DNA from: Vairimorpha necatrix
Taxonomy: Eukaryota
Assembly (NCBI GenBank): GCA_036630325.1
Contig: CP142728.1
Span: forward strand, 930,001 to 994,000
Length of the DNA: 64,000 nucleotides
Reading direction: 5' to 3'
Shown here: positions 8,328 to 62,100 of the stretch, piece by piece
Layout: each line of letters begins with the position of its first letter
How positions within the stretch are numbered: position 1 is the first letter of the stretch
The notes under the pieces: model-generated
Databases searched by the model: none
Seen by the model: only the letters and a program-made list of their open reading frames with translations
What the model was told of the DNA's origin: nothing
Made by a program: the position numbers and the translations under genes

Positions 8328-9394
8328 GGTGCTTCTCCGTTTCGCTGCCCTAAAAAAATGGGGCAGCAAAAATAAAAAAAATAAAAAAAATAAAATCAAT
8401 TAGAACATCCATTTACTCATTCTTGAATACGTTATTTAAAAATTTTTTTCTAAAAGTAAATTCTTCGAGCCAAAATTCGATATTCACACGTTTTACTCCG
8501 TGCTGTTTAGTCATTTCAGATTTCATACAAGACCAAAAATTCTCAATATTATTAGTATGAAAACCTTCTTCATTAGTAAATCCTATTGAATGATTTACAA
8601 TAATGTGTTTGAGTTTTAGATTCGCTGCTACACCGGGATAACTAGGATGGCCATCCGAAATAAGAAATGATCCCGGTAAGACTATATTTCCTATTATCTT
8701 TGTTAAAATATTTATCTTTCGATCCGGAACTTGTACTATACAAAAATTTTTTCTATCTACAGCTTCTATTAACCCCAAAATCCATACAGTATCTTTAATT
8801 CCATCATCTGCTCTAGATGAAACTCTAATAGTTCCTCTTTTACACAGTACAGTTTCATCAGCTTGAACTTGAACTCCCGATCCACCGATTTTGCAATCGG
8901 TTTCCAATTTCTTTCTAATATATTCCCTAAATTTAAGCTTTATTTTTAAAATAGTGTCATTTGACACACACGTTAAACATTTAATTAATCTATAATTGCT
9001 GTTACAAAGGACCAAGAACACAACAAAAAGATAAATTTTAAATGACAACTTAATCCCAGGTAAAAAGCTGTTTTTGGCCCTGCATTGTTGTCTCATACAC
9101 CTATAAACTAATCTTTCCTTTCCCCTTTCCAATAATATTGTAAGCTTTGCAACAACATGATCACAAAAACCACATCGTCTAATCAAATTAATAATTCCAG
9201 TCTCTATCATGTAGTCTTTACATGAGGCAAGCTGGAAAACAAAGGATGTCTAAAATTATAAAAGTTTCTTTTTGTCATTTTTGGGGCTTTTTTTTAAAAA
9301 AAAAATAAAAATTATTAAATTTTTGCTTTTCTCCGTTTTGCTGCCCCCCCCCCCCAAAAAAAAAAAAATAGGGGCAGCAAAACGGAGAAGTGCC
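8328..9394 (-). mobile_element. Merlin element (transposase ORF 8413-9210)
   Basis: TIRs GGTGCTTCTCCGTTT.../...AACGGAGAAGTGCC with TSD AAGTTTTC. Motifs QADET, SDGHPSY, HTNNIENFWS. Confidence 0.92.
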
Positions 9395-11323: not shown

Positions 11324-12401
11324 GGTGCTTCTTTGGTATTCGATCAGAGATTTTTTTAAAAAAATTCCGACCCCTAAAAATGAAAAATTCGAATTTTGAA
11401 ATTTCTGATCGAATACCTAAGAAAAGCACGAAAGTGAAAATCAAGCCAATACAGAGGCTTTTCTACGGCAATGACGATTGTTTGAACTCATTAATTGAGT
11501 TAGAAGTGCTCTCAGAACAAAAAATATGTTTCAAATGCAGTGAGGTTGCAAAATTAAGGTTATTTAATGAAAGAGGCATTAAAAGAGTGGTATACAGGTG
11601 CACAGACTATAAGTGCAGTGCAAAGGTATTCATAAATAAAGGAACAAGTTGTCTTTGAATAACTACTGCGAATTAATATTTTTAATTCTATGTAGAAGTA
11701 GCTATTTTATTTTAGAAGCAAAATTGGGGGTTTCGTCTTCAACTGTAGCCAAAGCAAAAAAACGACTTAGACAAATTTTTAAAAATAGAATGTCTAAAAG
11801 TCTAATTATTGGTGGACCAGGTAAAATTGTCCAAGTTGATGAGTCTGTCATCTGTAGAAGATGTAAAAGAAGATATCCAACAAGCTCAGACGATTCAATT
11901 CCTGACACTGTTTGGATATTAGGGATAGTAGAGGCTGATAATCCCACAAACTTTTACATTACAAGAGTTGAGAACAGAACCGTAGAGTGTTTAACAGAGG
12001 CTTTAAAAAGTAAAATAGGTATCGGTTCAATTTTACATAGTGATGGTCATCCAAGTTATCCGGGTGTGGCTCGAAATCTTTGTCTCGAGCATAAGGTTGC
12101 AAATCATTCTTTAGGTTTTAGATCTGCAGATGGAACTTATAACAACAATATTGAAAACATTTGGTCGCAATTAAAATCTGAAATGACCAAGGAACATGGA
12201 GTTAAGCGTAAAGAAGTTGATACTTGGCTTATTGAATTTATGTTCAGGAAATTTTATTGTAAAATAGACGATTTAAATGAGTTTTATGATTTTTATCTTG
12301 ATTATTATTTAATTTATTAAATTATATTTCTATTATTTTTTTTTATTTTTTCCTTTACAAGGGGGGGGTCTTTAGGTCCGATCGAATACGAAAGAAGCAC
12401 C
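11324..12401 (+). mobile_element. Merlin element (transposase 11380-12320, one frameshift)
   Basis: TIRs GGTGCTTCTTT(G/C)GTATTCGATC. Motifs QVDES, SDGHPSY, NNIENIWS. No TSD. Confidence 0.88.
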
Positions 12402-12574: not shown

Positions 12575-14911
12575 TCTTTTAATAATAAGATTTTTATCAC
12601 TGTTCATTGTGGTGTTTACTATCAACTTTCATGTATTTCCCGAGCTGTTCTATATTCAGCTCGGAAAGGAAAAACTCTTTATGGCTTACTGTAGGATTAT
12701 CAGATAGGCCGTTTTTTATAACTTTTATTGCCTTATCAACAGGCACATACTTTTTCCAATTTTGACGAAGATCGGAGATTATTTTCGTCAAAGCTGATCT
12801 GTTCCTAGAGATATAGTCGCCTACTTCGTTTTCGGCAATAATACTCTTACATTTTTTGAAGAGCTCCCTAGAGTTTCAGCAGCTTGAAAGCAGATTTCAT
12901 CTCTAATAAGAAAAATCCTGCCCTCTCCTTCAATATCTTTTACTAGAGGAATATTCTTTTCCTCTATGCTCTATATTTTGGGCTAGGTCTCTCTAATAAT
13001 GTGTTCCCCCCGGGGAACAATAAGCGACTACAATTTTGTATTTGCAGTCCTTGGGCCTCTTTCCGTTGATTGCTAGGTCTAGCAACTCTTCTCTGGATAG
13101 CTTATCTATTCAGTTCGGCTGTTTCTTCCTTGATGTGTGAGGAGGAGGTACCTTAGGCGAAGAAGTTTTCTTCATCTTGGATTTGCGTTCAGTCATAAAT
13201 TTCGACTTCGCACGAACTTTATAGATAACATATACCAATCATCTTCCAGTATTTTATTACAAGTTTTGAAACTTAACGGGGATTTCAACTGTTTCTTATC
13301 ACAGTTAAAATTCTTTTTTTACACCGCCTGGGAAGGGGGCAAGTTATTGGTTTCGACTGTTTTTGATGTTTTTGAGACATCAGATTTCTTTAAAACCTTT
13401 GGTTTCATATCACAATTTTTGAGAATGACTGTTCAGTCATTCTTCGTCTTTTCTGTTTTAAGAATATTTTTATTCATCAACTTTCTGTTTCCTTTACGGC
13501 ATCGGTTACCTTCCGTAAAAACACATTGAAGGTATTGAATGATGGGATCGTTTTACCAGTAACCTTTATTTGCCTTTATCTTGAGCTTTGGAAAATCCAC
13601 CAAACTTCTCCTTTTCCTTTTTTTGATCACTACTATCAGGTTTTATGGTGATTTGTTCCTCACATTCTTCTTTTGAGCAGCGAGAATTATGTCAATTCTC
13701 TGATCTAATCTTTCATTTGAAGCCTTTAGGGCATCAATTTGTGTGTCAAATTGGTTTCTAACTACAGAAATCTCAATTTCATGCTGTTTCTTCAAGTTTT
13801 TAAGCTTGAATCTCTTTTCACTGAGCTCTTCACAAAAGCATCTAAGTACTCCCGATGAATACTAGTCACTCCATGTAAATTCTTACAGTAGGAAGCAAAG
13901 CTAGCCACCAACCCGCTCTCCCACAGTACCTTTGGTTGGCATTTCTACCTTCTTCTCTCTTTATTCTGTTGAATAAAGTAATAGTTTGTGACCAGAATTT
14001 TATTAATTCTTGGTCTGTGTGAATAGCAGCTTGCAGAAGCTGGTAACTTCACAATCTGGTTTGTAACCTTCCAATACAAGTGAATTAACTCTTTATTATA
14101 CTCTAGAGGTCGATAAGTCGGTCATAATCTCGCAAGTTTCTCCCTCCTTTGTTTTACGTTTGGTTAACCAGCATTTTTCCGGAAATCTAAAACCGATCAG
14201 ATAATCTCGTGTGGAGAAAAGCCTTCTACTTTCTTCTCTTTTTCGATCTATGAGTCTTTGCACATTTTCCTTATCATCAAAATAAATGGTTTCTGTGTCC
14301 AAATGTTGCTTTATATGTATTCTCAATATTTTTTAACCATTCTATAATATTCATATTTCGTAGATCTTCAATAAAGTAAAGGTCCGCCGTGAACTTCAGT
14401 TCTAAGCCTTCTATTTTGGTTTTGAATGTAATGAACTTTCCCTTGAAATTTTCTGTCTGTTTCCTTCCGTCTTTTGACAGATGTACCTTGCTTAGGATTT
14501 CTCTGGTTGAATTCAACTTGACGTATCTTAGGCGGAGATATGTCTTAATGAGGTAAAAGGCATTTTCAGGAGTAAAGCTTTTATTATTTTTAGCGTTTGT
14601 ATTCACCTTCTTGCTCACCATGCCCTTGTGAGCTTTTTTTTGCTATTTATACTTTTACATGTTTGTTTGTAAACAAACAACAAGAAGTTTTAGAAAGACT
14701 ATTCTTGGAATGGAGTATATTGTATCATTACATGGATATGGATTATTTGTTAAGAATAGTAAACAAATAATGTGATGAGCTATGTTTTGATTGATAAGGT
14801 CATCACACTTGCCAACCAGCAGACGAAGGTTGGCAAGACTTAATGCTTTGCACCCAGTTATAATAAACATTGGTCCACCCTCCGCGACGTGGACGCTCTC
14901 TTGTGGCGGGC
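12575..14911 (-). mobile_element. LINE subfamily B copy: 5' ribozyme, 5' UTR and decayed ORF1
   Basis: Inverse homolog of ~59140-61760 (e.g. peptide SDLRQN.KKYVPVDKAIKVIKNGLSDNPTV). That copy continues into an APE domain. Many frameshifts. Confidence 0.8.
14842..14911 (-). ncRNA. HDV-like ribozyme (degenerate P2')
   Basis: Minus strand: P1 GCCCGCC/GGAGGGT (G1.U wobble, one mismatch), P2 AGAGA, P3 GCG-TCCACGT-CGC, P1.1 CC/GG, P4 ACCA...TGGGT, J4/2 GCAAA. Confidence 0.75.
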
Positions 14912-14954
14912 AGAGATTTGCAGCTAGTTAAAAAAAAACATTGGTCCCACCCTC
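14912..14954 (-). ncRNA. 3' half of a further HDV-like ribozyme copy
   Basis: Minus strand GAGGGT-GG-GACCAATGT(n)AACTAGCT-GCAAA-TCTCT, i.e. P1', P1.1, P4, J4/2, P2'. Confidence 0.65.
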
Positions 14955-15058
14955 AAAAAAATAAAATAAAAATAAAAATGTTTATATTTAAAAAGACAGA
15001 ATCAGCAAAAAGAAAAGCCACCAATCCCCCCCCCCAAAAAAAAAAAAAAAACTCCACC
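14955..15058 (-). repeat. LINE 3'-end fragment with T-rich tail (continues at 26250-26282 beyond the LTR insertion)
   Basis: Plus strand AAAAAGACAGAATCAGCAAAA...AAAAGCCACCAA...AACTCCACC matches the 3' ends at 26.3, 33.1 and 36.5 kb. Confidence 0.8.
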
Positions 15059-16216: not shown

Positions 16217-17919
16217 CAGTCCATTTCATTTTTATTGACACCTTGTTTCATTTTTATTGACACCTTGTTATATTTTTATTGACACCTTGTTTCATTTTTA
16301 TTGACACCTTGTTTCATTTTTATTGACACCTTGTTTCATTTTTATAGACACCTTGTTTCATTTTTATGGACACTTTGTTTCATTTTTATAGACACCTTGT
16401 TTCATTTTTATAGACACCTTGTTTCATTATTATAGACACCTTGTTCTAAAATTTATTTTACTTTTCTTAAAATTTTTAACCCTTAAAATATGAGAAACCT
16501 AAATGTCAGAGAAGAACTTGAGGAATATCGTACAGAAGAATCATTTGTCGAGATAGAAGATGAAACGCAGTCTTCTGCTGCAAGAAAAACTAGGAAAATG
16601 GTTACCAGGTTGATAATCGAAAGTTTTCTTTCGTTACTTGACACTGGTATGAAACTTATTGATATGGAAGTTGCTTTAAATCTCAGTAAGTCTAGCGTCA
16701 AACGCCTATATAAAAGATATATTACAGGAGAATTTACCAACCTTTCAACTTTTAAAACGGCAGGACAAAAAAAGAGTGAATCTTTAAAAGATATTTCTAT
16801 GGTTTCAAATATTATTGCATCGGAAATAGCCCCGAATCCTTGTCTAGGTCTTTATAATTTATCCGATAAATTGCAAAATGTAAATTGTACGGGACATTAC
16901 TCTAAGTCAACTGTTTGCAGACTTGTTAAAAAATTGGGGTATAGTTCTAAAACCCCGACCTTGATTCCACTAAATAGAAACAGTCCTCAGAACAAGCTGT
17001 TAAGGTCTCAATATGCGAGAGTAATAGATAACATATCAAATGATAATTTAATATTTCTCGACGAAACTGGTTTAAATCTGCACCTTAACAATACTTTTGG
17101 TTATTCTTTAAGAAATACTAAGTGTTGTGTAACGGTCCCGAATTCGAAAGGGACTAATGTTTCTTTAATGTGTGTTATAAGCGTTAATGGATTATATGCG
17201 CATAAAACCAAAGTCGGAAGTTTTAAATCTGCAGATTTTGTCGAATTCATTAACAATAATTTACCTATATGTGAGCAAGAGGAAAACAGAATTTTAATAT
17301 TGGATAACGCATCCATACACAGAACGGCCGAAGTAGCCGCCGCTCTTAGAAACAAAGGATACAGTCTAAAACTTCTCCCTCCATATTCTCCACAACTAAA
17401 CCCCATCGAGGAGTTTTTTAACAGTTTCAAGTCCCGAGTAAAACAGAGACCTAGACCAACAACCACTCCTTTGTTAATTGATTGTATTGAGGACGTGTTG
17501 AACACAGAAGTATTCGTCATGGGTGGTTACTTTTCTCATATGAGAGAATTTATCGAGAAAGCTCTTGTCAATGCGGATTTTTTCTGAATTAATATAATTA
17601 AAAATTTTAATTTAATATTTCTAAGATATTTTCATTGTTTGGCATGTAAATATTGATGTTTATATATATATCGTTACCTCTTCTTTACGATTCAACTATA
17701 TAAATCAATTATGAAAAAATCAAATATATTTTATAACAAGGTGTCTATAAAAATGAAACAAGGTGTCTATAAAAATGAAACAAGGTGTCTATAAAAATGA
17801 AACAAGGTGTCTATAAAAATGAAACAAGGTGTCTATAAAAATGAAACAAGGTGTCTATAAAAATGAAACAAGGTGTCTATAAAAATGAAACAAGGTGTCT
17901 ATAAAAATGAAAAGGACTG
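16217..17919 (+). mobile_element. Tc1/IS630-like DNA transposon with tandem-repeat TIRs
   Basis: TA|CAGTCC...GGACTG|TA. Excision restores RT peptide WLNNIRPVVKP. 22-bp unit repeated ~10x left and ~8x inverted right. Confidence 0.95.
16490..17587 (+). CDS. DD34E transposase (IS630/Tc1 superfamily), intact
   Basis: FLDETG ... ILDNASIH ... PPYSPQLNPIE, with 34 residues between the second D and the E. Confidence 0.93.
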   Translation: MRNLNVREELEEYRTEESFVEIEDETQSSAARKTRKMVTRLIIESFLSLLDTGMKLIDMEVALNLSKSSVKRLYKRYITGEFTNLSTFKTAGQKKSESLKDISMVSNIIASEIAPNPCLGLYNLSDKLQNVNCTGHYSKSTVCRLVKKLGYSSKTPTLIPLNRNSPQNKLLRSQYARVIDNISNDNLIFLDETGLNLHLNNTFGYSLRNTKCCVTVPNSKGTNVSLMCVISVNGLYAHKTKVGSFKSADFVEFINNNLPICEQEENRILILDNASIHRTAEVAAALRNKGYSLKLLPPYSPQLNPIEEFFNSFKSRVKQRPRPTTTPLLIDCIEDVLNTEVFVMGGYFSHMREFIEKALVNADFF

Positions 17920-26388: not shown

Positions 26389-29300
26389 TAAAAAAATAAA
26401 AATAATAATAAAAATAAAAATGTATATTGTAAAAAAAGACATCCAGAATCAAAACAAACGTTCCTAAATCATCATAATAAGTTCCATATAATAGGAGGCC
26501 AAATCCATTCAAAGAAAAATACATTCAAATAAAGGAAATAAATAGATGGGATACAGAATGATATGAAAAATCAGCAAAAACGAAGAAAAGCCCCCCAAAA
26601 CTCCACTGCTAAGGAAAAATCATCAATAATCGCGCTTTCGCGCCAGCACACCTTTACGGCCTCGCTTGTAGTAGAAAAACTTGTTCTATGGGACAACAAA
26701 TTCTAGTCAACGATGACTAGATCCACCAGAGGTGGTGTGTGTGAAAACGACATCGTCTGGCTCAATACACCATTTAAGAACACAACTCAGTTCAGCGGAA
26801 CAAATAAAGCATCAGTATCATGCTTGAACCCTCCCAGGTCAATTATATAAATATATAAATTTTGTCGTTAACAAATTAACTAAATTTTTCTTCCATTTCT
26901 GGGTATTTACTTTTTTAAGAAATCTTCATTAATTATTCATGTGATTGTTGAGCTCCTTGAGTTTGTTATTGAATAGTATCGCTCTGGAGACAACCATCTT
27001 GTCTAGGAACTCAATGATCAAGCAGAGTTCTTTTATATGTTCCGGATTATTTTTCAACCCAATCTTATTACCAAGAAGTTGCTTTGTTTTTTCTTGGTTA
27101 TTTGTTTGTGAACATGTTAGTAGAGGCAGTTTATTTCGCCGCGATGATCTTATTTCGTTTAATGACGAGCACTCAAACAGGAAGTGTTCTAAATTTTCTT
27201 GTGGTCCATCACACAAAAAGCACATCATTCTATAACTCACTGGAATTCTCTTTGCATTGGCTATTGAGGAGGACCACCTTACTAGATTACATCTTAATCT
27301 AGTGTATGTTCTTATCTTTCTATTGTTGACTTTGTTTATGACATATTTCAACTGTGAGCTTCTTATGTCATAAATATCTGCTATTGATGCAGCTACAGAA
27401 GTATTTATCGTTCTCCTTCTTCTTAGTACATCAGTTGTTTTTGTAGAAACAGATACATTGTTCTTGTTTCATAGTCGTTACCGACGAATCTTTTTAACCA
27501 CCTTTGCGTTCTTGTAGACCAGGTGGTTTTTCTTTCTCTCGGATTGATTGAAATTATATCTGAGATTATGGTTTTATTGTGTTTCCACTTGTTGTATGCT
27601 CTAAAGCTACTTAAAGCTGCTTGTATATGAATTCGTTCTATACTGAACTCATCCAATAATCTATCTAGGGGAACTAATACCTGTTGGAATATCATCCCCA
27701 ATGATTTCCTTAAGATCCTATTGATCTTACCTGCTCTTGTACTAGACATTCCCCAAAGTTCATTGCCATACATTAGTGTGGGAACTAGTACACATTTTGT
27801 CAAGATCGCCTTAAATAATATGTTGATACCATTATTTAATAACTTTGGCATCAGGGCGTCTAGGGGTTTCGAGCCACGCATTGCCGCGTCTCTGACCAAA
27901 TGTTCTTCAAGTGTGTTTCCTTTATTAAAACACATAGATATCTATATTCTGTGACTTCTTCAATCACGCCAAAGTCTGTATTGATGGAATATAAACTTCT
28001 AATTTCTTGAATATTAGAGTTAACATTCCATTCTAATACTCCACTCTTCTTGCAGTTAATTTTCATTCTGTTGTCAACTGCACATTTCGAAATTCTTTTG
28101 ATCTTATTTTCTAGATCATCAATATTGTTTCCAAAGACAACGATATCATCGGCGAACATCAGTCCTGAAACTCTTGTATTTGATCTTGGGATCAAGACAC
28201 CATCTATGCCGTCAAAAATATCATTGATAAATATATTGAACAGCATTATAGAACAAGGGCATCCTTGTCTCACTCCTTTTCTGTAGCCATAGCCACTTGA
28301 ATTTTCTCCGGCGATTTTTATTGGCATGGTGGTGTTTTTATAGATATTCTTTATTGTATTTATCAAATACCTGGGGATATCTAGATTTTCTAGCTTACTA
28401 AATAATAAGTCATGACTTACATCATCATAAGCTTTCTCAAAGTCTATGAAACACATCACTGTGTTCACGCCTCTGAATTCTCTTCTTCTTACTACTTCAA
28501 GTAGGAGAGTAAATTGGTTCATACATTCTTCACCTTCTCTAAATCCTGCTTGGTATTTAGAGATGATGTTATTTTCTTTAACAAATTGGGTCAATCTGTC
28601 GTTAATTATCTTGAGATAGATCTTGCTAATTGTGTTTATTTTGGAGTTTCCCGTATAATTATTCAGATCTGTCTCTTCTCCTTTTTTGTGGAGACAAATC
28701 ATGTTTGCCATACTCCAGTATTTTGGTAGGGTTTCTCCACTAATGTATTTATTAAATTCATATAGCATGAATTTAAAGAATTTTTCTTCTACTGCTCTAG
28801 TCAGTAAGTGTTTGTATAGCTCGGTTGGAATCTCATCAGGACCGGCAGCTTTGTTGTTTCCGCATTTCTTCAGTGCGGATAGAAATTCTTCATCTGTTAT
28901 CTCTGGGGGAAGATCAAAAAAATCTACTTTATCATAGGCATTGACATCTATATCATTCTCTGACGATAATTCGGCGTAAAATTTATTCGCTATTTCTAGC
29001 TTCTTTGCTCGGCAAGTCTGAAGAAGCTTATTGTGGTCAATTAGAGTTACTTGATCCAAACGAATGGAAACACTTCTATTTTTCAGCCATTGCCAGAATT
29101 CTCGGGATCTATTACTTTTAAAGAGCTTTATTCCTTTTAAAACCCAAAGTTTCGATCTATCTTTGCGAATAAATTTCTTCGTATCCTCTACTCTCTTTTT
29201 GATATCTACGAGCCGGGCTAAATTGATTTCATTGTGATTTTTCATAACCGCTTTTGCTGCTAAACGCTTTTCTTTGAAGACTTTTAAGTATCTCCATCTC

Positions 29301-32279
29301 ATTGTAAGTCCAGTGTGGACCCTTTTCTTTTTGTAGATCTTTAAAGATGTACAAGCTTTTTTAATAATCTCGGGAAGATTATTCATACTTAATTGTTGAT
29401 TACTCAACTTCATTTTAAGCCTTTTAATCACTTTCGGATTTTCCAGCATCTTTTTATCATAGACTAGTTGATCAGAGATCTTATCAACAGTTAGTGAGAT
29501 ATATTTTTTGAGCACTAAGTGATCACTTAGTACCCAAGACTTTGATATAATGATCTTCTCATTATCGTATTCTTTCAGCCTAAAGATGGTATCAATTTTT
29601 CTCTTAGATCTTTTCCCATCTTTGAGAATCCTTGTACCATCTTTGCTGTTATACTTCATCGTAACTGGTAAACCAATTACTACTAGTTTTTTCTTGAGAG
29701 AAGAACTCTGCATATTCATATCTCCCATTACTATAATTTCACTATAATAGTTTCTGAATTTCTCTTTTTCTAGAAGAGACAAAAGTCTGGCAAGCACCTC
29801 CCTTTTGAGATCCCTGTCTTGTGGTATGTAGACATTTAAGATTAAGTATTTAATCCACTTGCCTTCTGATCTAAACTCAACCACTGTTTGCAGAATGTTT
29901 GAGTCAGTTCCCTTTTTGCTACATCTAATAGCTCCAGTGTTTCTCACCAGAGTTATTAACCCTGGTTTATTTTTTCCACTGCTTGGTGTTTCAACAGCAG
30001 TGTATTTTTCTAGTCTAAGGGATCTATTAGATTGTCTCCAAGTTTCCTGTAGACACATAATTTCTGGTTTCTCCTTCTTAAGAAGAAACTCAAGTTCTTC
30101 TCTCTTGTGGGAGAGATGGTTGATGTTGAGACTTAAGAGTTTTATCTTCTCTCTAATCTCTTTTATTGTTTTATTAGTTTTTTCTAATCCTTTTCTGTTA
30201 TCATTTAAAACTTTATAGCCTTCAGCTTTAATAATCTTAATCAATAAATTTTTATGTGTTTTTTCAACTACTATCTTTGTTAATGACGCATTTCTACGTC
30301 TAAACTTTCGTATTGTAAAAATGGCAGAATCTAATTCAGACTCTCTATTTACAAGACATTTTCTTAGGTCTTTACAATCGACGGGAATTCTTTGCATATT
30401 AACTATACAGAAATTTTCTTGTAGTTTTCTAGTCCATAGATTTTTCCGCGTATAAAATGAAGTTATGCACTTCATCCTTCTACGGCTTCTGAAAGCTCCA
30501 AAAGGTTTATTTAATCCTGTAGGATTAGTGATTTTTTTATTTAATAAAGATAATAAATATTGAATTTTGAAAGAGAAATATCTCTTGTAAAACTTAGACT
30601 TTAAAAGAATATCAACTTTATTCATTTTTAGAGTCCTTCATTTTCCGGGCAGGTTCACCCATCATACTATGTAGGTAGATAAAATTTTTATATGCTAAAT
30701 TCTCACTACCTAAATTCTTCTTTATGTACTTACAAGCTTCCGTAAGTGGTATAAAATTTTTATTAATTCTAGAAACCCATAGAAGCTCCTCCAGAATTAA
30801 ATCCTTCTTTGATTTCAGAAAGTCCACCATAAATGTCTCGTCATTACAGACATATGCCTCTGGGATTTCGTCCAAGAGATTTTTTACTGCTCTTTCGCAG
30901 GTACCTTCTCTGAGCATCAAGAGAATAGACTCTTCATCTCTAAACTGCTTTAAGAGTGGGATGTCTTTTCTCTCAATAGTGAGTAGAGCAGCCCAAGCGT
31001 CTCTAGCTTGGTGCTCCTTCCATACTCCCAGACCTCCTACCAATACAAATTTAAATTTGCATTTGGATATAGGACATCCACCTCTAATAATTTTAATGAG
31101 AGCTTCTTTAGAAAGCCCTTTTGCCCTGTTCTTCTGAGGTTGAACTGGGTTTATTTTCTTGCCAGATTTCTCTTGGGATTCCTTCTTAGCCATTTTGGGG
31201 CTTGAATTTTTCTTTTCTTTGATGGAATTTTTTTTCTCGCCTAGTGACATTGTTAGGCTTTCCTTTTTGTGAAATTTAATACACTTCCCTAGGTTTTCTA
31301 CTTTAATAGAAGTAAATCTATTAAGTTCTTTTAATTTAGTATGTTTAATACTAGAGTTTTTATTAAGACCAAATTGCATCTTTGGCTTAAAGGTATGTCT
31401 GACAGACTTCCATCCATCTTTATTGATTTGGTATAGCTTAACTCCATTCTTTGGAGCTTTGCTTCTACCAGATATTATTGCTGAGATAATTTTAAGATGA
31501 TTATCTACTGCTTTCTTATTTATGTCAGCTACATCGAGCTTAACATTATTGGTATTTACAACTTCATTAGTTATATTTTTACTTTCTTTAGAGACTTCAA
31601 TTGTTTCTAAACACATTCTTTTGCCATATTCTGACAATCTATCTTCTTCTTCTACTTTAGAGGCAGATTCGAGATTTTTGACATTAATTAAAAAATCTTC
31701 ATTTATGATTTCTAAATTAGAAACATCATTCTTTCCAGTAGCTAACTGAAGGGTTTCGCTACTGGTGACATTTGGAACATTGGAGTTAATATCCTTTTGT
31801 TCTACATGTTCTTTTGAGTGATTCTCTATCATCATCTCAATTTTGTTCTTTGATGCTTCAGTAATTTGATCACTGTCATCCATCAAATTATTTTTAATCA
31901 AATTTTTTAATTTCATTTTTTGTTTTTCTAGCTTATCGTGGGAGAGCTCCAGATATGTCTGCTGAATCGTTACTAATTCAGTAGTACTAGATATAAACTT
32001 TTTAAGATCATTAAGATCTTTTCTACTTTTATTTTTTGACATGTCCAAAAAATCATTTTTACAAATTCTTTCTGAAAGAATTTTAATTTTTTTAAGAAAA
32101 TATTTCATCTCTCCATCTTTTTTGAAAGTAACGCTAGAGTTACCATCATCAGCATAAACATGCTTAATATGTTCTGTTAAATACATTTCTGTATCTAACT
32201 TGTTGTTTTGACCATCATAGTGGTCACTTGTGGCACTACTGTGCTCGCTCCTGCTTTTTTCCTCTTTACCCTTCATCAT
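26389..32279 (-). mobile_element. APE-RT non-LTR retrotransposon (LINE subfamily A, copy 1), near full length
   Basis: ORF1, then ORF2 with APE (LQETW, MGDMN, SDH), RT (GVRQGCP, FADD) and C-terminal CFLC...EHFLFEC. Structured 3' UTR. Confidence 0.93.
26929..30625 (-). pseudogene. LINE ORF2 (APE endonuclease-RT-Zn knuckle), split by a frameshift and a stop
   Basis: ORFs 27860-30625, 27423-27935 and 26929-27351 are collinear with the A2 copy. Confidence 0.9.
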
Positions 32280-33071
32280 GTTTAGACTTAAGAGTTTTAT
32301 GTTCTCTTTGGTCTTTTTATTTACTTTACTAGATTTCTCTAGTTCTTTTCTATTATCATTTAAAACTTTAAAGCCTTTAGCTTTAACTGTCTTAATCAAT
32401 AAATTTGCGTATAGTTTTTCAACTATTATTTTTGTAAAAAACGTGTCTCTTCGTCTATACTTTCTTGCTGTAATGATGGAATTCTCCAAAAGAGAGTTCT
32501 TCTTACATAAGTCTTTGAGGAGATCTTTCACTCCATAAGGAATTCTTTGTATCTTGACAATACAATATTGTTCTTGTACTTTCTTCCACCACATATTCTT
32601 TCTAATAGAAAAATATTTGAGACTATTCAGTCTCCTTGGTGTTTTAAAAGTATTTTTTAATTTATTATAACCAATTGGATTATGAGTTTTTTTATTTAAA
32701 GATTTAAAAATATCACTTTTGTTATAGGAAAATAATTTCCTATAAAAACAGAACTTTAACAAGGATACTTTATTCATTATAAAGTCCTTAGATTCTCGGG
32801 CAGGCTCACCCATCATATTTTCTAAATAAATGAAATATCCATGGTTTGGCTTTTCTTTATTTAATTCTTTAGTTATGTACCTACATGCTTTAACAAGTGG
32901 TACAAAGTTTTTATGCGTTCGAGAGAATCTTTGTAGTTCTCCTAGAACAGTTGTTTTTGTTAAAGACAAAAATTCGATGAAGAAATTAACTTCCTCACAG
33001 ATATTAGAACCCACGAACTTTTCTTTAATTTTGCCTAGTACCTTAGGGCACACGTTTTCTCTAATCATCAA
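30618..33071 (-). CDS. Chimeric ORF: paralogous ORF1-end/ORF2-start fragment fused in frame to LINE ORF1 (probable native start ~32279)
   Basis: The first ~265 aa repeat the end of this ORF (FIYL..MMGEPAR) and the start of ORF2 (MNKV..., IKLLSLN). The rest is Lys-rich ORF1-like sequence. Confidence 0.7.
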   Translation of the reverse strand: MMIRENVCPKVLGKIKEKFVGSNICEEVNFFIEFLSLTKTTVLGELQRFSRTHKNFVPLVKACRYITKELNKEKPNHGYFIYLENMMGEPARESKDFIMNKVSLLKFCFYRKLFSYNKSDIFKSLNKKTHNPIGYNKLKNTFKTPRRLNSLKYFSIRKNMWWKKVQEQYCIVKIQRIPYGVKDLLKDLCKKNSLLENSIITARKYRRRDTFFTKIIVEKLYANLLIKTVKAKGFKVLNDNRKELEKSSKVNKKTKENIKLLSLNMMKGKEEKSRSEHSSATSDHYDGQNNKLDTEMYLTEHIKHVYADDGNSSVTFKKDGEMKYFLKKIKILSERICKNDFLDMSKNKSRKDLNDLKKFISSTTELVTIQQTYLELSHDKLEKQKMKLKNLIKNNLMDDSDQITEASKNKIEMMIENHSKEHVEQKDINSNVPNVTSSETLQLATGKNDVSNLEIINEDFLINVKNLESASKVEEEDRLSEYGKRMCLETIEVSKESKNITNEVVNTNNVKLDVADINKKAVDNHLKIISAIISGRSKAPKNGVKLYQINKDGWKSVRHTFKPKMQFGLNKNSSIKHTKLKELNRFTSIKVENLGKCIKFHKKESLTMSLGEKKNSIKEKKNSSPKMAKKESQEKSGKKINPVQPQKNRAKGLSKEALIKIIRGGCPISKCKFKFVLVGGLGVWKEHQARDAWAALLTIERKDIPLLKQFRDEESILLMLREGTCERAVKNLLDEIPEAYVCNDETFMVDFLKSKKDLILEELLWVSRINKNFIPLTEACKYIKKNLGSENLAYKNFIYLHSMMGEPARKMKDSKNE

Positions 33072-33113: not shown

Positions 33114-36100
33114 AAAAAATAAAATTGTTTATTGTAAAAAAGACAGAATCAGCAAAACGAAGAAAAGCCTCCAAGCCACCAAAAACTCCACTAATAAAGA
33201 AAAAATCATCAATAATTGCGTTTACACGCCAGCATACCTTAACGGCCTCGCTTGTAGGAGAAAAGTTTGTTCCCATAGGACACATCCTTAGTCATAATAT
33301 GACTAGAGACCCACTTTCATGGGTCTAATGAAAAACGAAAACGCCTGGCTCAATGCACCATTTAAGAACACGACTCAGTTCAGCGGAACAATACAGCATC
33401 AGTATCATGCCCGACCTCTCCCAGGTCAAATATAATTAAATATAAGTCTTTTTGTTAATAAATCAACGTCTCTTTCTTCTATTTCTAGATCTTCATTTTT
33501 TTAATTATTCATATTAATTACCTTGTTTCGTTATCTCCTTAAGTTTCTTTTCAAATATAATTCTTCTAGAGACAACCATTCTATCTAAGAACTCTATAGT
33601 CCAACAAAGTTCTTTTATCTTATCTGGGTTGTTTCTTAATCCGATTTTATTACCAAGAAGTAATTTGGTTTTTTCTTGGTTATTTGTTTTTGAACAAGTC
33701 AGTAGAGGCAGTTTATTTTCAAAAGATGATCTAATGTCAGTTAAACAGACGCACTCCAGCAGAAAGTGTTCTAAATTTTCTTGTGGTCCATCACACAAAA
33801 AGCATTTATTTCTATAACTCATAGATATTCTTTTTGAATTGGTTATTGCTGAGGACCACTTTACTAGATTACATCTCAATCTAGTATATGTTCTAATTTT
33901 TCTATTGTTTATTTTGTTCATGACATATTTTATTTGTGAATTTCTTATGTCATATTGATTTGCTATTGATGCAGCTAAGGAAGTATTTAGAGTTCTCGAC
34001 TTCTTAGTACATCAATTATTTTTGTAGTGATAAATCTACTATCACTTGATTCATATTCGTTGCCAACAAATCGTTTTAACCATCTTTGTGTTCTTGAACA
34101 CCAGGTAGTTTTTCTTTCTTTCGGATAAATTGAGATTATATTCGATATGATTGTCTTATTGTGTTTCCACTTGTTGTATGCTCTAAATCTACTTAAAGCT
34201 GCTTGTATATGAATTCGTTCGATACTGAACTCGTCCATTACTCTATCTAGTGGAACTAATACTCTTTTGAATATCATTCTGATAGATTTTCTTAAGATCC
34301 TGTTAATCTTACCTGCTCTTGTACTTGACATTCCCCACAGTTCACTACCATACATTAGTGTGGGTACTAGTACACATTTGATTAAGATCGCCTTGAAGTA
34401 AAGGTTGATGCTATTATTCATCAACTTGGGCATCAAGGCGTCTAAGGCTTTCTTGCCACGCATTGTTGCGTCTTTGACCAAATGTTCTTCTAGCGTGTTT
34501 CTTTTAATTAAGACACCTAGATATCTGTATTCAGTGACTTCCTCAATCACACCAAAGTCTGTACTGAGAGAATACAAACTTCGGAATTCTTGTATGTTAG
34601 AATGAGCAGCCCATTCTAATACTCCGCTTTTTGAGCAGTTAATCTTCATTCTGTTATTAACTGCCCAATTAGAAATTCTATTGATCTTATTATTAAGATC
34701 ATAAATGTTGTTTCCGAAGACAACAATATCATCTGCGAACATCAGTCCCGGAGCTCTCGTATTTGACCTTGGGATCAAAACTCCTTCTATGCCATTAAAA
34801 ATATCATTGATGAATATATTGAATAGCATTGGAGAACAAGGGCACCCTTGTCTCACTCCTTTTCTGTAGCTATAACCACTTGACGTGTCACCACCAATTT
34901 TCACACGCATAGTGGTATATTTATAAATATCCTTTATTGTATTGATTAAATACAATGGGATATTAAGTTTTGTAAGCTTCTCAAATAATAAGTCATGACT
35001 TACATTATCATAAGCTTTTTCAAAGTCAATGAAACACATTATTGTGTTCAGGCCTCTGAATTCTCTTCTTCTCACTATTTCTAGTAGAGATGTAATCTGA
35101 TTCATACACTCTTCACCTGCTCGGAATCCTGCTTGGTATCTAGAGAGTATATCTTGTTCTTCGACAAATTGAGTTAACCTGTCATTTATTATCTTGAGAT
35201 AGATCTTACTAATTGTGTTAATTAAGGAGATTCCCCTATAATTATTCAGATCTGTCTCATCTCCTTTTTTGTGAAGGCAAATCATGTTTGCCATGCTCCA
35301 ATATTCTGGAGGACTATTTCCACAAATATATTTATTAAATTCATGTAGCACGAATTTAAAGAATTTATCTTTTACTGCTCTAGTCAGTAAGTGTTTGTAT
35401 AGCTCGGTTGGAATCTCATCAGGACCGGCAGCTTTGTTATTTCCACATTTCTTCAGTGCGGATAGAAATTCTTCATCTGTTATCTCTGGGGGAAGATCAA
35501 CAAGATCTACTTTATCATAGACATTGACATCTATATCATTCTCTGACGCCAAATCAGCGTAAAATTTATTCGCTATTTCTAGCTTCTTTGCTCGACAAGT
35601 CTGAAGTATCTTATTGTGGTCAATTAGAGCCACTTGATCCAAACGAATGGAAACACTTCTATTTTTCAGCCATTGCCAGAATTCTCGGGATCTGTTACTT
35701 TTAAAGAGCTTTATTCCTCTTAAAGCCCAAAGTTTCGATCTATCTTTGCGAATCAACTTTTTAGTTTCGTCTACTCTCTTTTTGAGATATTCGAATCTAA
35801 TTGAGTTGATTTCGTTGTAATTTTTCATAACAGCTCTTGCTGCTAGACGTTCTTCTTTGAAGACTTTTAAATATCTCCATCTCATTGTAAGTCCAGTATG
35901 GACTTTTTTCTTTCTGTAAATCTTTAACGATGTACAAACTTTTTGAATAATCTCAGGAAGATTATTCATGTTTAATTGTTGATTACACAACTTCTTTTTA
36001 AGCTTTTTAATCACTTTTGGATTTTCCAGCATTTTCTTATCATAAACTAGTTGATCTGAGATCTTATCAACGGCAAGTTTAATTTTTCTTTTGAGCACTA

Positions 36101-36491
36101 AGTGATCACTTAATACCCAAGACTTGGATATAATGATCTTCTCATTATCATTACTTTTTAGTCGAAAGATGGTATCAGTTTTCCTCTTAGATCTTTTACC
36201 ATCTTTGAGGATCCTTGTACCATCGTTGCTGTTATATTTTATTGTAACTGGCAAACCAACTACATTTAGTTTTTTCTTGAGACTAGAACTCTGCATATTC
36301 ATATCTCCCATCACTATGATCTCACTATAGTTATTTCTGAAATTCTCTTTTTCTAAAAGAGAAAGTAATCTGGCCAAGGTCTCCCTCTTGAGATCCTTGT
36401 CTTGTGGTATGTAGACATTTAAGACTAAATACTTAATCCATTTGCCTGCGGAACTAAACTCAACTACGGTTTGCAGGATGTTTGAGTCTGT
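33114..36491 (-). mobile_element. LINE subfamily A copy 2, 5'-truncated within the APE domain
   Basis: ORF 33987-36593 matches A1 ORF2 from DSNILQTVVEF onward (YRGISL, QGCPCSP, FADD). C-terminus 33514-33921 is frameshifted. 3' UTR module at 33130-33428. Confidence 0.93.
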
Positions 36492-36995
36492 AAAAAAAAA
36501 AAAATAAAAATGTTTATTGTAAAAAGACAGAATCAGCAAAACGAAGAAAAGCCACCAAGCCACCAAAAACTCCACCAACCAGAAAATCATCAATAATTGC
36601 GTTTACACGCCAGCATACCTTAACGGCCTCGCTTGTAGGAGAAAAGTTTGTTCCCATAGGATACATCCTTAGTCATAATATGACTAGAGACCCACTTTCA
36701 TGGGTCTGATGAAAAACGAAAACGCCTGGTTCAATACATCATTTAAGAACACGACTCAGTTCAGCGGAACAATACAGCTTCAGTATCATGCCCAACCTCT
36801 CCCAGGTTTAAAATATGAAGAATTACTCGAAAGTTAACGGTGTTCTTCTCACCAGCAATGGGTCTCCCACCCCTAGAGTATAGCTGACCCTACTTACCAA
36901 CCAGCAGCCGAAGGTTGGTATGACTTAGAGATCTGCACCTAGTTAAAAAACATCGGTCCCACTCTCCGCGACGTGGACGCTTTCTTGTGGAGGGT
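36492..36995 (-). mobile_element. Non-autonomous short internally deleted element: ribozyme 5' end joined to LINE 3' module
   Basis: 36895-36995 matches the 5' end at 14810-14911. 36505-36808 is near-identical to the A2 3' UTR. No ORF between them. Confidence 0.85.
36927..36995 (-). ncRNA. HDV/CPEB3-like self-cleaving ribozyme
   Basis: Minus strand ACCCTCC-ACA-AGAAA-GCG-TCCACGT-CGC-GGAGAGT-GG-GACCGATGTTTTTTAACTAGGT-GCAGA-TCTCT. P1, P2, P3, P1.1, P4 and the J4/2 C are all present, with one mismatch each in P1 and P2. Confidence 0.8.
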
Positions 36996-37062
36996 AGTAC
37001 CAAATAAAATAAAAAAAAATACGCTCTCTTGTGAAGGCCAACACCTACTATACATACAAAAA

Positions 37063-39544: not shown

Positions 39545-39581
39545 AAATTTAATAATTAAAATTAATTTAAATTTAACTTAT
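39545..39581 (-). other. Very short AT-rich ITS
   Basis: ~37 bp, almost all A/T, between the SSU end (GGATCATAA) and the LSU start. Confidence 0.8.
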
Positions 39582-40827
39582 TATGATCCTGCTAATGGTT
39601 CTCCAACAGCAACCATGTTACGACTTATATCAGATCTAATACATATTGTTCAAGTAGTTTTCACTAATTTCACAACACATATCATCTTAGATAGCGACGG
39701 GCGGTGTGTACAAAGAACAGGGACACATTCAATTCTACTTATTTAATAAAATTTACTAGCAATTCCAAGTTCAAATATCTCTTACAAAATATTATCCCAT
39801 AAAGATTATATATCTATTGTATTGCGCGTGCAGCCCAAAATGTCTGAGGGCATAACGGACCTGTTTTAATCCTTTCCTTCCTACACTGATTGTGTCTGTC
39901 TATTAATAAAAGGGTCTCACGTCTTGTTGAAATTAATCAAAACTTCACAGCATCCATTGAAAACGGCCATGCACCACTATTATCATTCTCAGATTGAAAA
40001 TCTTCTCTGAATAATAAAATATTGGTAAGTTGCCTCGCGTTGAGTCAAATTAAGCCGCACAATCCACTCCTTGTGGTATTCTTCCGTCAATTTCTTTAAT
40101 TTTCAATCTTGCGATCATACTATCCCCAGAGCCAAAAAACTCAAATTTCTATCATCTAATACAATTAATATCATATCACATCGTCGGCATAGTTTACTGC
40201 TGGAACTACAATGGTATCTAATCATCTTCGCTCCTCCAGCTTACGTCCTTGTTCAAAAAATACATACAAGTGTACAGCTTTCGCTTCTGTTCGTCCAGTC
40301 AGGGTCGTCACATTTCATCTCTCTCCCAACTATACAGTACACCTCATATTGCTTCTTAAATATAAACTACGGACTTTTTAACTGCATCAATCATCATACA
40401 CACTCTTGGAACAAGTATTACCGCGGCTGCTGGCACTTGATTTGCCCTCCAATTAATCACCTCATATACTTTTACAATATGAAACAATAGAATATTACTT
40501 CCCATAACTGCCTCAGATAAAATCCATAGGTCAAGTTTCGCCCCTGCTGCAATCCTTAGACTTAGTAGCCGTCTCTCAGGCTCCTTCTCCGGAATATTAC
40601 AAAGTAATACCGTTACCCGTCATTGCCTTGTTAAGCCATTACCTTAACAACTAGCTGATAGGTCTCACTCTTACTGTATATGTCTTATGCTACACTTTAA
40701 CGCAGTTATACTAATTTAATACATTAAATAAAGTGAGTATTACTGAGCAGTCCATTTTTCCATATCAAAAACATGCATGGGTTAATCTTAGGGAATAGCG
40801 TCTACGTCAGGCAGAATCAACCTGGTG
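39582..40827 (-). rRNA. Small subunit rRNA (reduced, Vairimorpha/Nosema type)
   Basis: Starts CACCAGGTTGATTCTGCCTGACG. Contains GTGCCAGCAGCCGCGGTAA and TGTACACACCGCCCGTC. ~1.25 kb. Confidence 0.98.
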
Positions 40828-58510: not shown

Positions 58511-59139
58511 TCTGCAGATTTCCAGTTGTATTGTTGTAGACTGTTAGTCTTCAACATTTATCTTATTTCCCTCCTTGTCAAAACTATCATTGAATTTTCA
58601 TATAAAATATTTACTGTAAATAAATTTCCAGAAAAAGGAAGGGTACGTAAAAAGGAGATGGAACAGAGAATGAAAGAACAGTATGGCAGAGAGTCCAGAG
58701 GGACTGTTATGAATAAAAAACAATTTATTAAAAGTATTTTAGGATATTACCTTATATCCGGGAGGGTTTTCCTGGGATACCACATGTATATGTGTGGTAT
58801 TATCCACATTTCAAGAAAATCATTTTTTCTTATAAAAACTTTTTCTAGGAAAAATGAATTTTCTAGGTTTTTATTTTTTATAAATATTTATTTAAGAAAA
58901 GAAGGGTATGAGCTACGAGAAGAGAAGTCATAAGTAAAGCGATGACAGGTCGAAACTAAACAAAGACCAATACAGGCCAGAAGAGCCTCAAATGAAAAAT
59001 TGTTAGAAATGTATTTTAAACTTGGCAAAATACCCAGTGATAACCTCAATGTGCCTCAGTGTTTTTGGCGGTGAATGAAAATGTCCACGAATGAAACATA
59101 TCAATGTAAATAGGAGTTTGATCCATATAGATGGGGTTC

Positions 59140-62100
59140 ACCAAACGCAAAAAAAGGAGGAAGAAACTTGCGAGATTGAGGCCGGCTTATCGATTTATGG
59201 AGTACAAGAAAGTGTTAATTCACTAGTATTAAGAGGCTACAAACCAGATTGTGAAGTTAGCAGCTTCCGCAAGGCTGCTATTTACACAGACCAAGAATTG
59301 ATAAAATTCTGGTCACAAACAGAGACTTTATTCAACAGAATAAAGATAGAAGAAGGCAGAAATGCCAACCACGGGTACTGTGGGAGAGCGGGGTTGATGG
59401 CTAGCCTTGCTACTACTGTAAGAGTTCGCATGTAGGGACTAGTATTCATCAGGAGTACTTAGATGCCATCTATGAAGAGCTTAGTGAACAAAGATTCAAG
59501 CTAAAAACATGAAGAAACAGCCCGAGATTGAGATTTCTGTAATTAGAAACCAATTCAACACACAAATTAATGCCCTAAAGGCTCAAATGAAAGATTAGAG
59601 CAGAGAATTGACATGATTCTCACTGTAAAAAGGAGAGTGTGAAGAACCAATAACCATAAAAGTTGGTAGGACTGATCAAAAAAGAAAAAGAAGAAGTTTG
59701 GTGGCTTCTCCAAAGCTCAAGATAAAGAGCAAATAAAGGTTACTGGTAAAAGGATCCCATCATCCAATACCTTTAATGTGTTTTTACGGAAGGTAACCGC
59801 TGCCGTAAAAAGAAAACAAAAAGTTGTTGGAGATTAATATTTGGCTAAAGTGCGCATAGGAATATTTTTTGAACTAGGGTTTTTTATTTTTTTTGCCTCT
59901 TTTTTTGAAAAATGAAGGAAGGAAGATGGAGAGGAAGAAAGAAAATTAACAAGCAGAATAAAAGTTTTAATAAAGCAGCAAAGACTATAGTAGAAGAATT
60001 TCTTTGAAGCATTTACCTAAACAGATATAGTTTTGCACTATTGGCTGATCTGTTTCTATTAGGTAAAGAATTTTTTAGAGAACGCCAATTATCTTCTATG
60101 GCATTGGTATGGACTCCCGTGATTGGGTCTCTAAAGTGTAATGTATGTTAACCATATGGTGTTGGCTAAATAAAGTACCTAAAGAATTATAGGCTCTCCA
60201 CATATCACTATGTATGATACTTTTTGTGCTTACATATTTTAATAAAAGTGCTGTTAGAGTTTCTTTATCCCTTTTTTGATGTGTACTAGTATTATTTTAC
60301 GTTCCAATGTACGTTCGGTCATTCCAAAACACCAAAATCCTTTCACTAGCTTGCCTCGGTGGTTTTTATTTTTTCCTATCTCCGTCTCATCAATTTCTAC
60401 TATTATGTTCTCTCCTCCAATAATGGTCAGTGATGACAAATATTTATCGTAAATGTTCATTTCTTTTAGTTTTTTTAATACTGTAGATATAGATTTTTTC
60501 GAACAATGTAAAATTTGACAAATATACTTACTGGGATACCCAAGAATCCACAGATTAAGTATTTGTAATGTTAGTAAATGACAAAGTTTAGAATTACTAA
60601 AGAAAGAGTCATTCCAAATAGAAATTGTCTTTCGACATCCCTTCCAAGTACAAGTTAATAAATACTACTTTTTACTTACTTTACGTATTTTACCTCCACA
60701 TTGATCACAAATATTTATTGTTTTTTCTCTTATCAGTTCATTATATATAGTTTCTAATTCTTCTCTTGTTTTGATTCCTTCCTCCATTTTTCAAAAAGGG
60801 GCAAAAAAAATAAAAAACCCCTAGTTCAAAAAATATTCCTATAATGCACTTTAGCCAAATATTTTTCTAACAGAAAAGACGGAGAATGACTGGACAGTCA
60901 TTCTCAAAAATTGTGATATGAAACCAAAGGTTTCAAAGAAATCTGATGTCTCAAAAACATTAAAAATAGTCGATACAATGGGTTTGCCCCATTCTTAGGC
61001 GGTGTAAAAAAGGATTTCGACTGTGATAAGAAACAGTTGAAAGTGCCCGTTTGAAGTTTTAAAACTTGTAATAAAATACTGGAAGATGATTGGCCAATGT
61101 CATCTACAAAGGTTCGTGCGAAGTCGAAATTTATGACTGAGCGCAAATCCAAGATGAAGAAAATTCTTCGCCTAAGGTACTTCCTCCTCCCACATCGAGG
61201 AAGAAACAGCCGAATTGAATAGATAAGCTATCCAGAGAAGAGTTGCTAGACCTAGCAATCAACGGAAAGAGGCTCAAGGACTGCAAATACAAAATTGTAG
61301 TCGCTTATGGTAAATTCCGAGGGGAACACATTTTTAGAGAGACCTGGCCCAAAATATAGAGCATAGAGGAAAAGAATATTCCTCTAGTAAAGATATTGAA
61401 GGCGAGGACAGGATTTTTCTTATTAGAGATGAATTCTGTCTTCAAGCTGCAGAAACTCTAGAAAGTCTTCAAAAAATGAAGAGTATTATTTGCCGAAAAC
61501 GAAGTAGGCGACTATATCTCTAGGAACAGATCAGCTTTGACGAAAATATTCTCCGATCTTCGTCAAAATCGGAAGAAGTATGTGCCCGTTGATAAGGCAA
61601 TAAAAGTTATAAAAAACGGCCTATCTGATAATCCTACAGTAAGCCATAAAGAGTTTTTCCTTTCCGAGCTGAATATAGAACAGCTCGGGAAAGACATGAA
61701 AGTTGATAGTAAACATCACAATGGACAGTTATAAAAATCCTATTATTAAAAGTATTCTATTATATAATATATATTTATATAAAAAACAAGTTATACGGCT
61801 TCTTAGCTTACCTAAAATTATTGTCTACCCTACAATATACCAAAAGTTGGTAACTTTACTAATAAAAGTAATGGATGTAAGTTGATATTCAAATCTCATG
61901 TCTACATCGTAAAAAAAGCAAGAATGCCGAGAACAAGCATTCAAAAAAGTCTTTGTCTGGTCAAAATAATGGCCAACTATATAAAAGGAGAAGAACTCCG
62001 ACAACAGTTTGACAGAGTGATACGGGATTGTCGGTCTCTCTTATATATACCAGAAAGCATCGCAGAAAAGATGCTAACTTCACCTTCTGCATAGTCAGAA

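Follow-up and report, generated by a model that had tools for sequence, protein, structure and literature searches.

The release of retrotransposons without long terminal repeats (non-LTR) by ribozymes of the hepatitis delta virus (HDV) type is established in animals (R2, RTE and Baggins) and in trypanosomatids (L1Tc; PMC6765202, PMC3774820). The R2 ribozyme cleaves itself out of a co-transcript with rRNA; about a quarter of R2 ribozymes have mismatches in helix P1 and about a third in P2, cleavage can lie up to 36 nt upstream in rRNA sequence, and the rRNA-derived P1 can be duplicated at the element's 5′ end (PMC3774820). The R2 SIDEs (short internally deleted elements) and the R2/R1 hybrid SIDEs of Drosophila combine a ribozyme with the 3′ end of a LINE (long interspersed nuclear element), the hybrids joining the R2 ribozyme to the 3′ end of R1, which is of the APE type (PMC3414825). 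Co-location of rRNA operons with LINEs was described for several microsporidia in a 2025 comparative paper, the excerpt of which makes no mention of ribozymes (PMC12449221), and the microsporidian Vairimorpha necatrix was reported to carry, in each of four pseudo-haplotypes, 18–20 rDNA loci that lie dispersed, besides about 109 retroelements (PMC10759460). No report of an HDV-like ribozyme in microsporidia or other fungi was found in the literature, the fungal papers being judged by their titles and the beginnings of their abstracts. The present analysis concerns a 64,000-nt stretch of the V. necatrix genome (contig CP142728.1, positions 930,001 to 994,000; hereafter the window, in which all coordinates are given), where a candidate ribozyme of the HDV type, named copy A, was found at the 3′ end of a large-subunit (LSU) rRNA gene, or immediately past it, and upstream of LINE sequence.

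The reading we favour, with about as much doubt as confidence, is that copy A and a second copy, B, are decayed HDV-type self-cleaving ribozymes that head a SIDE-like element, and that this element would depend on a LINE for its movement and on read-through from the rRNA gene for its transcription. The candidate itself is as follows:

36927..36995, minus strand: copy A, HDV-like ribozyme candidate of 69 nt, supported by its table of pairs and by being the sole match to a strict descriptor

Read on the minus strand, copy A contains every element of the nested double pseudoknot of the HDV-like class (P1-J1/2-P2-P3-L3-P3′-P1′-P1.1-P4-J4/2-P2′), in the right order and with canonical spacing, with one mismatch in P1 and one in P2. 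P1 is formed by ACCCUCC (36995-36989) and GGAGAGU (36967-36961), which pair at six of seven positions, the first pair being A-U and the third a C.A mismatch. It is followed by J1/2 (ACA) and by P2, in which AGAAA (36985-36981) faces UCUCU (36931-36927) with four of five positions paired and one A.C mismatch. P3 (GCG/CGC; 36980-36978 with 36970-36968) closes the 7-nt loop L3, UCCACGU (36977-36971), and its 3′ strand runs without gaps into the 3′ strand of P1 and then into the GG of P1.1. In this last helix (CC:GG), C20 and C21 pair with G36 and G37 (36960-36959). P4 is an interrupted hairpin (36957-36937), and J4/2 reads GCAGA (36936-36932), which fits the C-N-R-A pattern with a putative catalytic cytosine at 36935; the predicted cleavage is 5′ of 36995. 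Further features typical of the class were present: C-N-R-A in J4/2, a P1.1 of two pairs, a P3 of 3 bp, and an L3 of about 7 nt containing U and G. A first-pass annotation, made from the letters of this DNA, had proposed the full nested order on the minus strand, and each element that it listed was found at the coordinates it gave. Its comparison of P3-L3 with that of the CPEB3 ribozyme was also borne out, the Rfam CPEB3 consensus having GCGUUCACGUCGC at this position.

Besides copy A, three further pieces of the same sequence lie in the window:

14842..14911, minus strand: copy B, a second ribozyme candidate, in which the first pair is a G1.U wobble, the core is intact and the 3′ strand of P2 is degenerate; its J4/2 cytosine is at 14850
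14912..14954, minus strand: H3, a 3′ half-copy that extends from the P1 3′ strand to the last nucleotide of the P2 3′ strand and meets nt 1 of copy B directly
37021..37039, minus strand: H5, 19 nt that correspond to ribozyme nt 1-19 and agree with copy B at 16 of 19 positions; it lies at the inferred LSU 3′ end or immediately past it

The core is identical in both full copies, namely P3, the U..CC..G of L3, the GG of P1.1 and the C-N-R-A of J4/2, the latter reading CAGA in copy A and CAAA in copy B and H3. A G1.U wobble at the base of P1, beside the scissile bond, is a feature of HDV; G1 opposite U was found in copy B, in H5 and in the consensus, and copy A has A1-U at this position. Alignment of the four pieces at the DNA level gave a majority consensus in which P1 (GCCCTCC/GGAGGGT) pairs at seven of seven positions, including G1.U, and P2 (AGAGA/TCTCT) at five of five. 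Both the set of four copies or half-copies and a fully paired consensus with these two helices had been put forward in the first-pass annotation, and both were reproduced here, the consensus by the alignment majority. Across the four pieces, 90.3% of the cells assigned to pairs do pair, vs 27–43% when the register is slid. The unpaired cells in P1 and P2 (n = 5) are all singletons, and in each case a third available copy outvotes them toward pairing; the private helix changes of copy A (n = 3) are G-to-A transitions, leading to A-U, A.C and C.A. An invariant core combined with private, mostly G-to-A, substitutions in the helices is what dead copies of a once-paired structure would be expected to show.

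The homology between copies A and B starts exactly at ribozyme nt 1, that is, at the predicted cleavage site, and runs to 36892 and 14807, respectively, past a conserved hairpin. At the locus of copy B, the preceding fragment stops precisely at nt 1. A boundary at this nucleotide is as would be expected for the 5′ end of a mobile unit. The sequences that accompany the two copies are:

36893..36922, minus strand: conserved hairpin common to copies A and B, 5 nt 3′ of the ribozyme; fold z-score −2.9
14808..14837, minus strand: the corresponding hairpin downstream of copy B; fold z-score −4.7, with homology to copy A ending at 14807
36816..36892, minus strand: 76-nt linker, present once in the window (nothing else matched it at E ≤ 1)
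36499..36815, minus strand: copy of the LINE 3′ untranslated region (UTR), or U-segment, 317 nt, ending in ACAATAAAC and a T-rich tail
14955..15030, minus strand: 76-nt fragment of the LINE 3′ UTR tail, directly upstream of H3 and 87.8% identical to 36564-36492

From 36995 to 36499, the ribozyme candidate (69 nt), 5 nt, the hairpin, the linker and the LINE 3′ UTR follow one another in a stretch of about 500 nt that contains no open reading frame (ORF). Self-BLAST of the window showed the U-segment (36815-36499) to be 93.8% identical to 33434-33114 and 76% identical to 26839-26569; it was identified as a LINE 3′ UTR because both of these other copies continue directly from LINE bodies. The last ∼35 nt of the linker weakly resemble, by eye, the sequence that precedes the LINE 3′ UTR. 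Copy B shares only the ribozyme and the hairpin with copy A, and the sequence downstream of it is unrelated and showed no retroelement domain. BLAST of the window with a word size of 7 returned no additional copies of the ribozyme, the 76-nt linker or the LSU end. Since LINE 3′ UTR sequence follows copy A and precedes copy B, the unit looks like a non-autonomous element of the SIDE type; the arrangement of such elements (a 5′ ribozyme and, taken from an autonomous LINE, a 3′ end, the whole being free of ORFs) is present here only if the candidate truly is a ribozyme. The first-pass annotation had placed the ribozyme at the 5′ end of the LINE family. This part of it was not borne out: neither ribozyme copy is joined to a LINE ORF, and the link runs through the LINE 3′ UTR.

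Three side observations concern these flanking sequences. A hairpin in the LINE 3′ UTR differs between copies, reading ACCCAUGAAAGUGGGU at 36705-36690 and CCACCUCUGGUGG in the copy at 26.7 kb; it may be a conserved structure recognized by the reverse transcriptase, with weak fold z-scores (−1.8 and −0.6). Directly before the LINE tail fragment upstream of copy B (15020-15046, minus strand), about 15 T are followed by about 11 G, and the descriptor listing shows comparable G-runs beside T-runs near 10250, 12520 and 7100. A repeat of ∼370 nt, 86% identical, occurs at 13800-14170 (minus strand), downstream of copy B, and at 59135-59502 (plus strand).

The LINE that supplies these 3′ ends is represented in the window by two larger copies:

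33435..36495, minus strand: body of LINE copy 1, 5′-truncated inside the APE endonuclease domain, with reverse transcriptase (RT) and zf-RVT present
26569..30625, minus strand: LINE copy 2, with the ATG of ORF2 at 30625 and a complete endonuclease (EN) N-terminus, frameshifted further on; its 3′ UTR spans 26839-26569

In LINE copy 2, ORF1 lies upstream and ends at 30618, the two ORFs overlapping at ATGAATAA (30625-30618). The start assigned to ORF2 agrees with the N-termini of full-length relatives, which have 1234–1237 aa and are 52–53% identical. The LINE protein of the window is 100% identical to a database record named ‘reverse transcriptase [Vairimorpha necatrix]’. It matched RVT_1 (7e-39) and, weakly, Exo_endo_phos_2 (PF14529) and zf-RVT, and PF03372 is among the precomputed matches of the identical record and of its relatives. 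These endonuclease matches identify the partner as an APE-type LINE, not an R2-like one. EN, RT and a C-terminal zinc finger were found, together with a 3′ UTR common to three copies, as in APE-type LINEs, and neither the restriction-like endonuclease nor the specific 28S site that mark the R2 clade was found. Searches with the ORF2 protein and profile gave no confirmed relative in metagenome or viral contigs. The insertion point of LINE copy 1 is the T-rich tail of the SIDE-like unit, and each LINE-derived piece in the window has such a tail before it, which suggests that such pieces prefer to insert into T-rich tails.

None of the LINE copies in the window has an intact 5′ UTR. The sole place that reaches the LINE 5′ region is a junction between two LINE pieces near 32290, and it contains no ribozyme-like motif. 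An 817-aa chimeric open frame was observed at 30618-33071 (minus strand), made up, in this order, of a 5′-truncated LINE piece (the ORF1 C-terminus and the ORF2 start, 33113-32278), about 360 aa rich in lysine and glutamate and without a Pfam match, and the C-terminal region of the ORF1 of LINE copy 2.

The rRNA genes upstream of the unit were located with Rfam models:

39581..40827, minus strand: small-subunit (SSU) rRNA, microsporidian model, 1059 bits
37032..39548, minus strand: LSU rRNA, both ends inferred

The Rfam eukaryotic LSU model aligned on the minus strand from 39466 downward with 1345 bits. Its 3′ end is unreliable, since it fell at 36865 in one run and at 36953 in another, and the alignment there is a large unaligned loop. 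LSU rRNAs of the Nosema group are 2481–2530 nt long. We infer that the LSU of V. necatrix ends near 37032-37040, for a length of ∼2510–2517 nt, from these lengths, from what we take to be a likeness to the terminus of yeast 25S rRNA, and from GGUGUUGG at 37045-37037, a possible partner of the LSU 5′ end (−7.0 kcal/mol). The length of the V. necatrix LSU was not found in the available part of the Encephalitozoon cuniculi ribosome paper. The Rfam model would therefore extend 70–170 nt past the likely end (36865-37030), and an automatic annotation based on it would swallow the candidate. A 105-aa ORF that runs through the LSU end and the candidate was judged spurious and matched nothing in the protein collection. 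Between H5 and copy A lies a T-rich stretch of 25 nt (37020-36996). The succession of H5, T-rich stretch and copy A would fit either a derivation of the ribozyme 5′ strands from rDNA or an origin of H5 as an extreme, internally deleted mini-copy of the element. The surroundings of this dispersed rDNA unit are rich in transposons: ISXO2-like DDE transposase ORFs (PF12762, 7e-12 and 9e-13) and a DDE_3 ORF of the Tc1/mariner type (PF13358, 3e-27) were observed, the transposase ORFs lying at 8413-9210 (minus strand), 11649-12320 (plus strand) and 16490-17587 (plus strand).

Taken together in a mechanism, the favoured reading would run as follows. The unit, which begins ∼25–40 nt past the LSU rRNA and appears to have no promoter of its own, would be transcribed by RNA polymerase I (Pol I) reading through from the rRNA gene. 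The nested double pseudoknot would fold during transcription, and the J4/2 cytosine at 36935 would cut 5′ of 36995, freeing an RNA whose first base is ribozyme nt 1. The ORF2 protein of the LINE would recognize the 3′ UTR and its T-rich tail and copy the RNA into targets rich in T, frequently the tails of copies inserted before. In this way, the APE-type LINE of V. necatrix would mobilize an element of ∼500 nt that has no ORF. Catalysis, co-transcription by Pol I and mobilization by the LINE are all predictions from the sequence, and the copies now present would be decayed rather than active.

An extension of this mechanism can be imagined, which we regard as a long shot. A family of APE-type LINEs and SIDEs might live on Pol I read-through at the LSU 3′ end, with ribozyme nt 1-19 (the 5′ sides of P1, P2 and P3 plus J1/2) copied from the LSU terminus or the 3′ external transcribed spacer (ETS), and with the original insertion at or next to the mature LSU 3′ end. 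The element might then hijack, or contribute to, the formation of the rRNA 3′ end, and its retrotransposition machinery may have helped to spread the rDNA units over the chromosomes of V. necatrix.

Several observations weigh against the favoured reading. No HDV-family Rfam model reached its gathering threshold in the window. The CPEB3 model (RF00622), run with permissive settings, gave 14.8 bits for both copies, the gathering threshold being 35, and its E-values were 0.71, 0.081 and 0.13 for stretches of 801, 91 and 141 nt, respectively, the first E-value scaling to about 57 for the whole window; both full copies did align to it in the predicted P1/P3 register. The other HDV-family models (HDV ribozyme and drz-type) gave nothing at E ≤ 10 on the two short loci and the 801-nt stretch. 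The ribozyme helices show no compensatory change between the two full copies, and the observed covariation score was reached by 249 of 500 shuffles; the sole compensatory pair in the alignment (A-U/G-C) is in the downstream hairpin. In stability, the nested HDV helices fall short of the unconstrained minimum free energy (MFE) fold, at −10.0 vs −15.3 kcal/mol for copy A and −12.4 vs −15.7 kcal/mol for copy B. The z-scores of the MFE folds of the candidate stretches are null (0.15, 0.76, 0.06 and −0.73), which carries no information, since such folding takes no account of pseudoknots. Copy A has no G1.U wobble; with its A1-U pair and its two A.C-type mismatches, one in P1 and one in P2, it may have little or no activity. 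The P1 of copy B contains a G.A mismatch, and the 3′ strand of its P2, GCAUU, pairs at only three of five positions, so that this helix fails the descriptor; of copy B, too, little or no activity would be expected. A descriptor of the bare topology, at the one mismatch per helix in P1 and P2 that copy A needs, matched 72 times, at some 33 places, in this AT-rich window (0 matches when no mismatch was allowed), and helix order alone is thus not beyond chance. None of the LINE copies in the window carries the ribozyme motif at its 5′ end: copy 1 is truncated in the endonuclease domain, and the 5′ region of copy 2 lacks the motif. Metagenome, prokaryote-genome and viral collections yielded no additional copy. 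Lastly, the best pairing partner of the LSU 5′ end, ACCCACA, is AGUGGGA within the candidate (36963-36957; −9.4 to −13 kcal/mol).

In the searches of these collections, a 22-nt core pattern matched 0 stretches in metagenome contigs and had three matches in GC-rich bacterial genomes, which were taken as chance because none has a complementary P1 5′ strand upstream. An 18-nt core pattern matched one viral contig. Sampled words of the window were present in 20 sequencing runs: eleven of these contained 0.32–0.33 of the words, which is roughly the share of the LSU, and two others reached 0.63 and 0.49; no conclusion is drawn from these figures.

The alternative that survives best, unlikely in our view but a serious contender, is that copies A and B are a conserved, non-catalytic module from the 5′ end of a retroelement, serving for example as internal promoter, protein-binding site or translation element. 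Such a module would centre on the GC-rich stem and the downstream hairpin, and the likeness to HDV and CPEB3 would have arisen by chance from a short GC-rich stem-loop in an AT-rich genome. The Rfam scores below threshold, the loose descriptor matches, the broken helices in both copies and the greater stability of the alternative fold would all agree with this, as would the fact that the compensatory pair and the strong fold z-scores belong to the downstream hairpin and the ribozyme helices show no covariation. A chance likeness is more difficult to reconcile with the results of a strict, GC-aware descriptor, which called for at least two G-C pairs in P3, both in P1.1 and at least three in P1. 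The candidate was its only match in the window (128 kb over both strands), and it matched in just 1 of 40 whole-window dinucleotide shuffles and in 0 of 213 shuffles in 1-kb blocks, which preserve local composition, figures that are only indicative because the thresholds were set after the candidate was seen. Further, the consensus is perfectly paired over 17 pairs in four helices, with G1.U at the base of P1 and C-N-R-A in J4/2, and the boundary of homology coincides exactly with the predicted scissile bond. Exactly two occurrences of the 15-nt core were counted in the window, and at least two were seen in 0 of 100 shuffles; this count is not independent support, since both occurrences are homologous copies. 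The HDV/CPEB3-like character claimed in the first-pass annotation stands as regards the architecture and the core, and does not extend to the Rfam threshold or to covariation. Of the computational checks it had suggested, the search with a descriptor, in its strict form, matched the candidate only, and the comparison with Rfam models gave a CPEB3 score below threshold.

A quite improbable alternative is that the sequence is native to the rDNA, either the 3′-terminal helix of the LSU or a processing signal of the 3′ ETS, and that the locus of copy B is a retro-copied or rearranged 3′ fragment of rRNA. The Rfam LSU model does cover the candidate, with GGUAC...GGACC as the terminal helix, but its two runs disagree on the 3′ end, in the large unaligned loop mentioned above. 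The pairing of the LSU 5′ end inside the candidate is stronger than that with 37045-37037, and H5 lies in or beside the LSU end; however, an LSU that extended to ∼36950 would be ∼2600 nt long, above the range of the Nosema group, whereas an end at 37032-37040 falls within it. Apart from the motif, no similarity links the locus of copy B to the 205 nt of LSU upstream of the candidate, and a LINE tail flanks that locus. In addition, the homology goes ∼35 nt beyond the plausible LSU ends into the hairpin, after which comes the LINE 3′ UTR. Finally, that an active ribozyme has been co-opted by the host for LSU 3′-end formation, its 5′ strands being the LSU terminus and its cleavage defining or assisting maturation, would fit the location directly after the LSU and the likeness of H5, at the inferred LSU end, to ribozyme nt 1-19, but is very improbable, since H5 combined with the P1 3′ strand of copy A leaves two of seven pairs unpaired, a cut 5′ of 37039 would remove part of the inferred LSU end, the unit goes together with LINE pieces, and nothing indicates that the motif occurs at other rDNA loci.

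If the favoured reading, that of a decayed HDV-type ribozyme heading a LINE-dependent element, is true, the strategy known from R2, which consists of riding on rRNA transcription and excising itself, would extend to an independent LINE lineage with a different endonuclease, and to a phylum with dispersed rDNA. It would also offer a mechanistic reason for the co-location of rRNA genes and LINEs across microsporidia. The ribozyme, if real, would be of a known kind, found in a new phylum and a different LINE lineage, and the trick is one already known from animals.

Among the known ribozymes, that of mammalian CPEB3 (RF00622) is alike in P3-L3, which is identical to its consensus at 12 of 13 positions, in the start of J1/2-P2 (CCACA..AGAAGCG) and in the P1/P3 register. 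It differs in being single-copy, intronic and mammalian, whereas here the motif belongs to a repeated element beside a LINE in a microsporidian and scores below the cutoff of the model. In addition, the L3 described here has UCC, which provides two G-C pairs in P1.1, unlike CPEB3; HDV itself has two G-C pairs in P1.1. The L1Tc/NARTc system of trypanosomatids (PMC6765202) also associates an APE-type LINE with a truncated, non-autonomous partner, and its Pr77, a 5′ HDV-like ribozyme of ∼77 nt, likewise frees the RNA from a longer co-transcript. There, however, the co-transcripts are polycistronic products of RNA polymerase II and activity was shown in vitro, whereas here the co-transcript would be rRNA; the two share no sequence similarity.

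The SIDEs of Drosophila are likewise free of ORFs and made up of a 5′ ribozyme and a LINE 3′ end, and they are propagated by the autonomous element (PMC3414825). They occupy the R1 and R2 sites of 28S genes with defined target duplications, whereas the window contains one such SIDE-like unit, in T-rich sequence downstream of the LSU, for which a target duplication could not be defined. [quoted passage not shown] Unlike R2, which has a restriction-like endonuclease and a single site inside the 28S gene of animals, the element described here is linked to an APE-type LINE, lies past the LSU 3′ end and resides in a microsporidian host.

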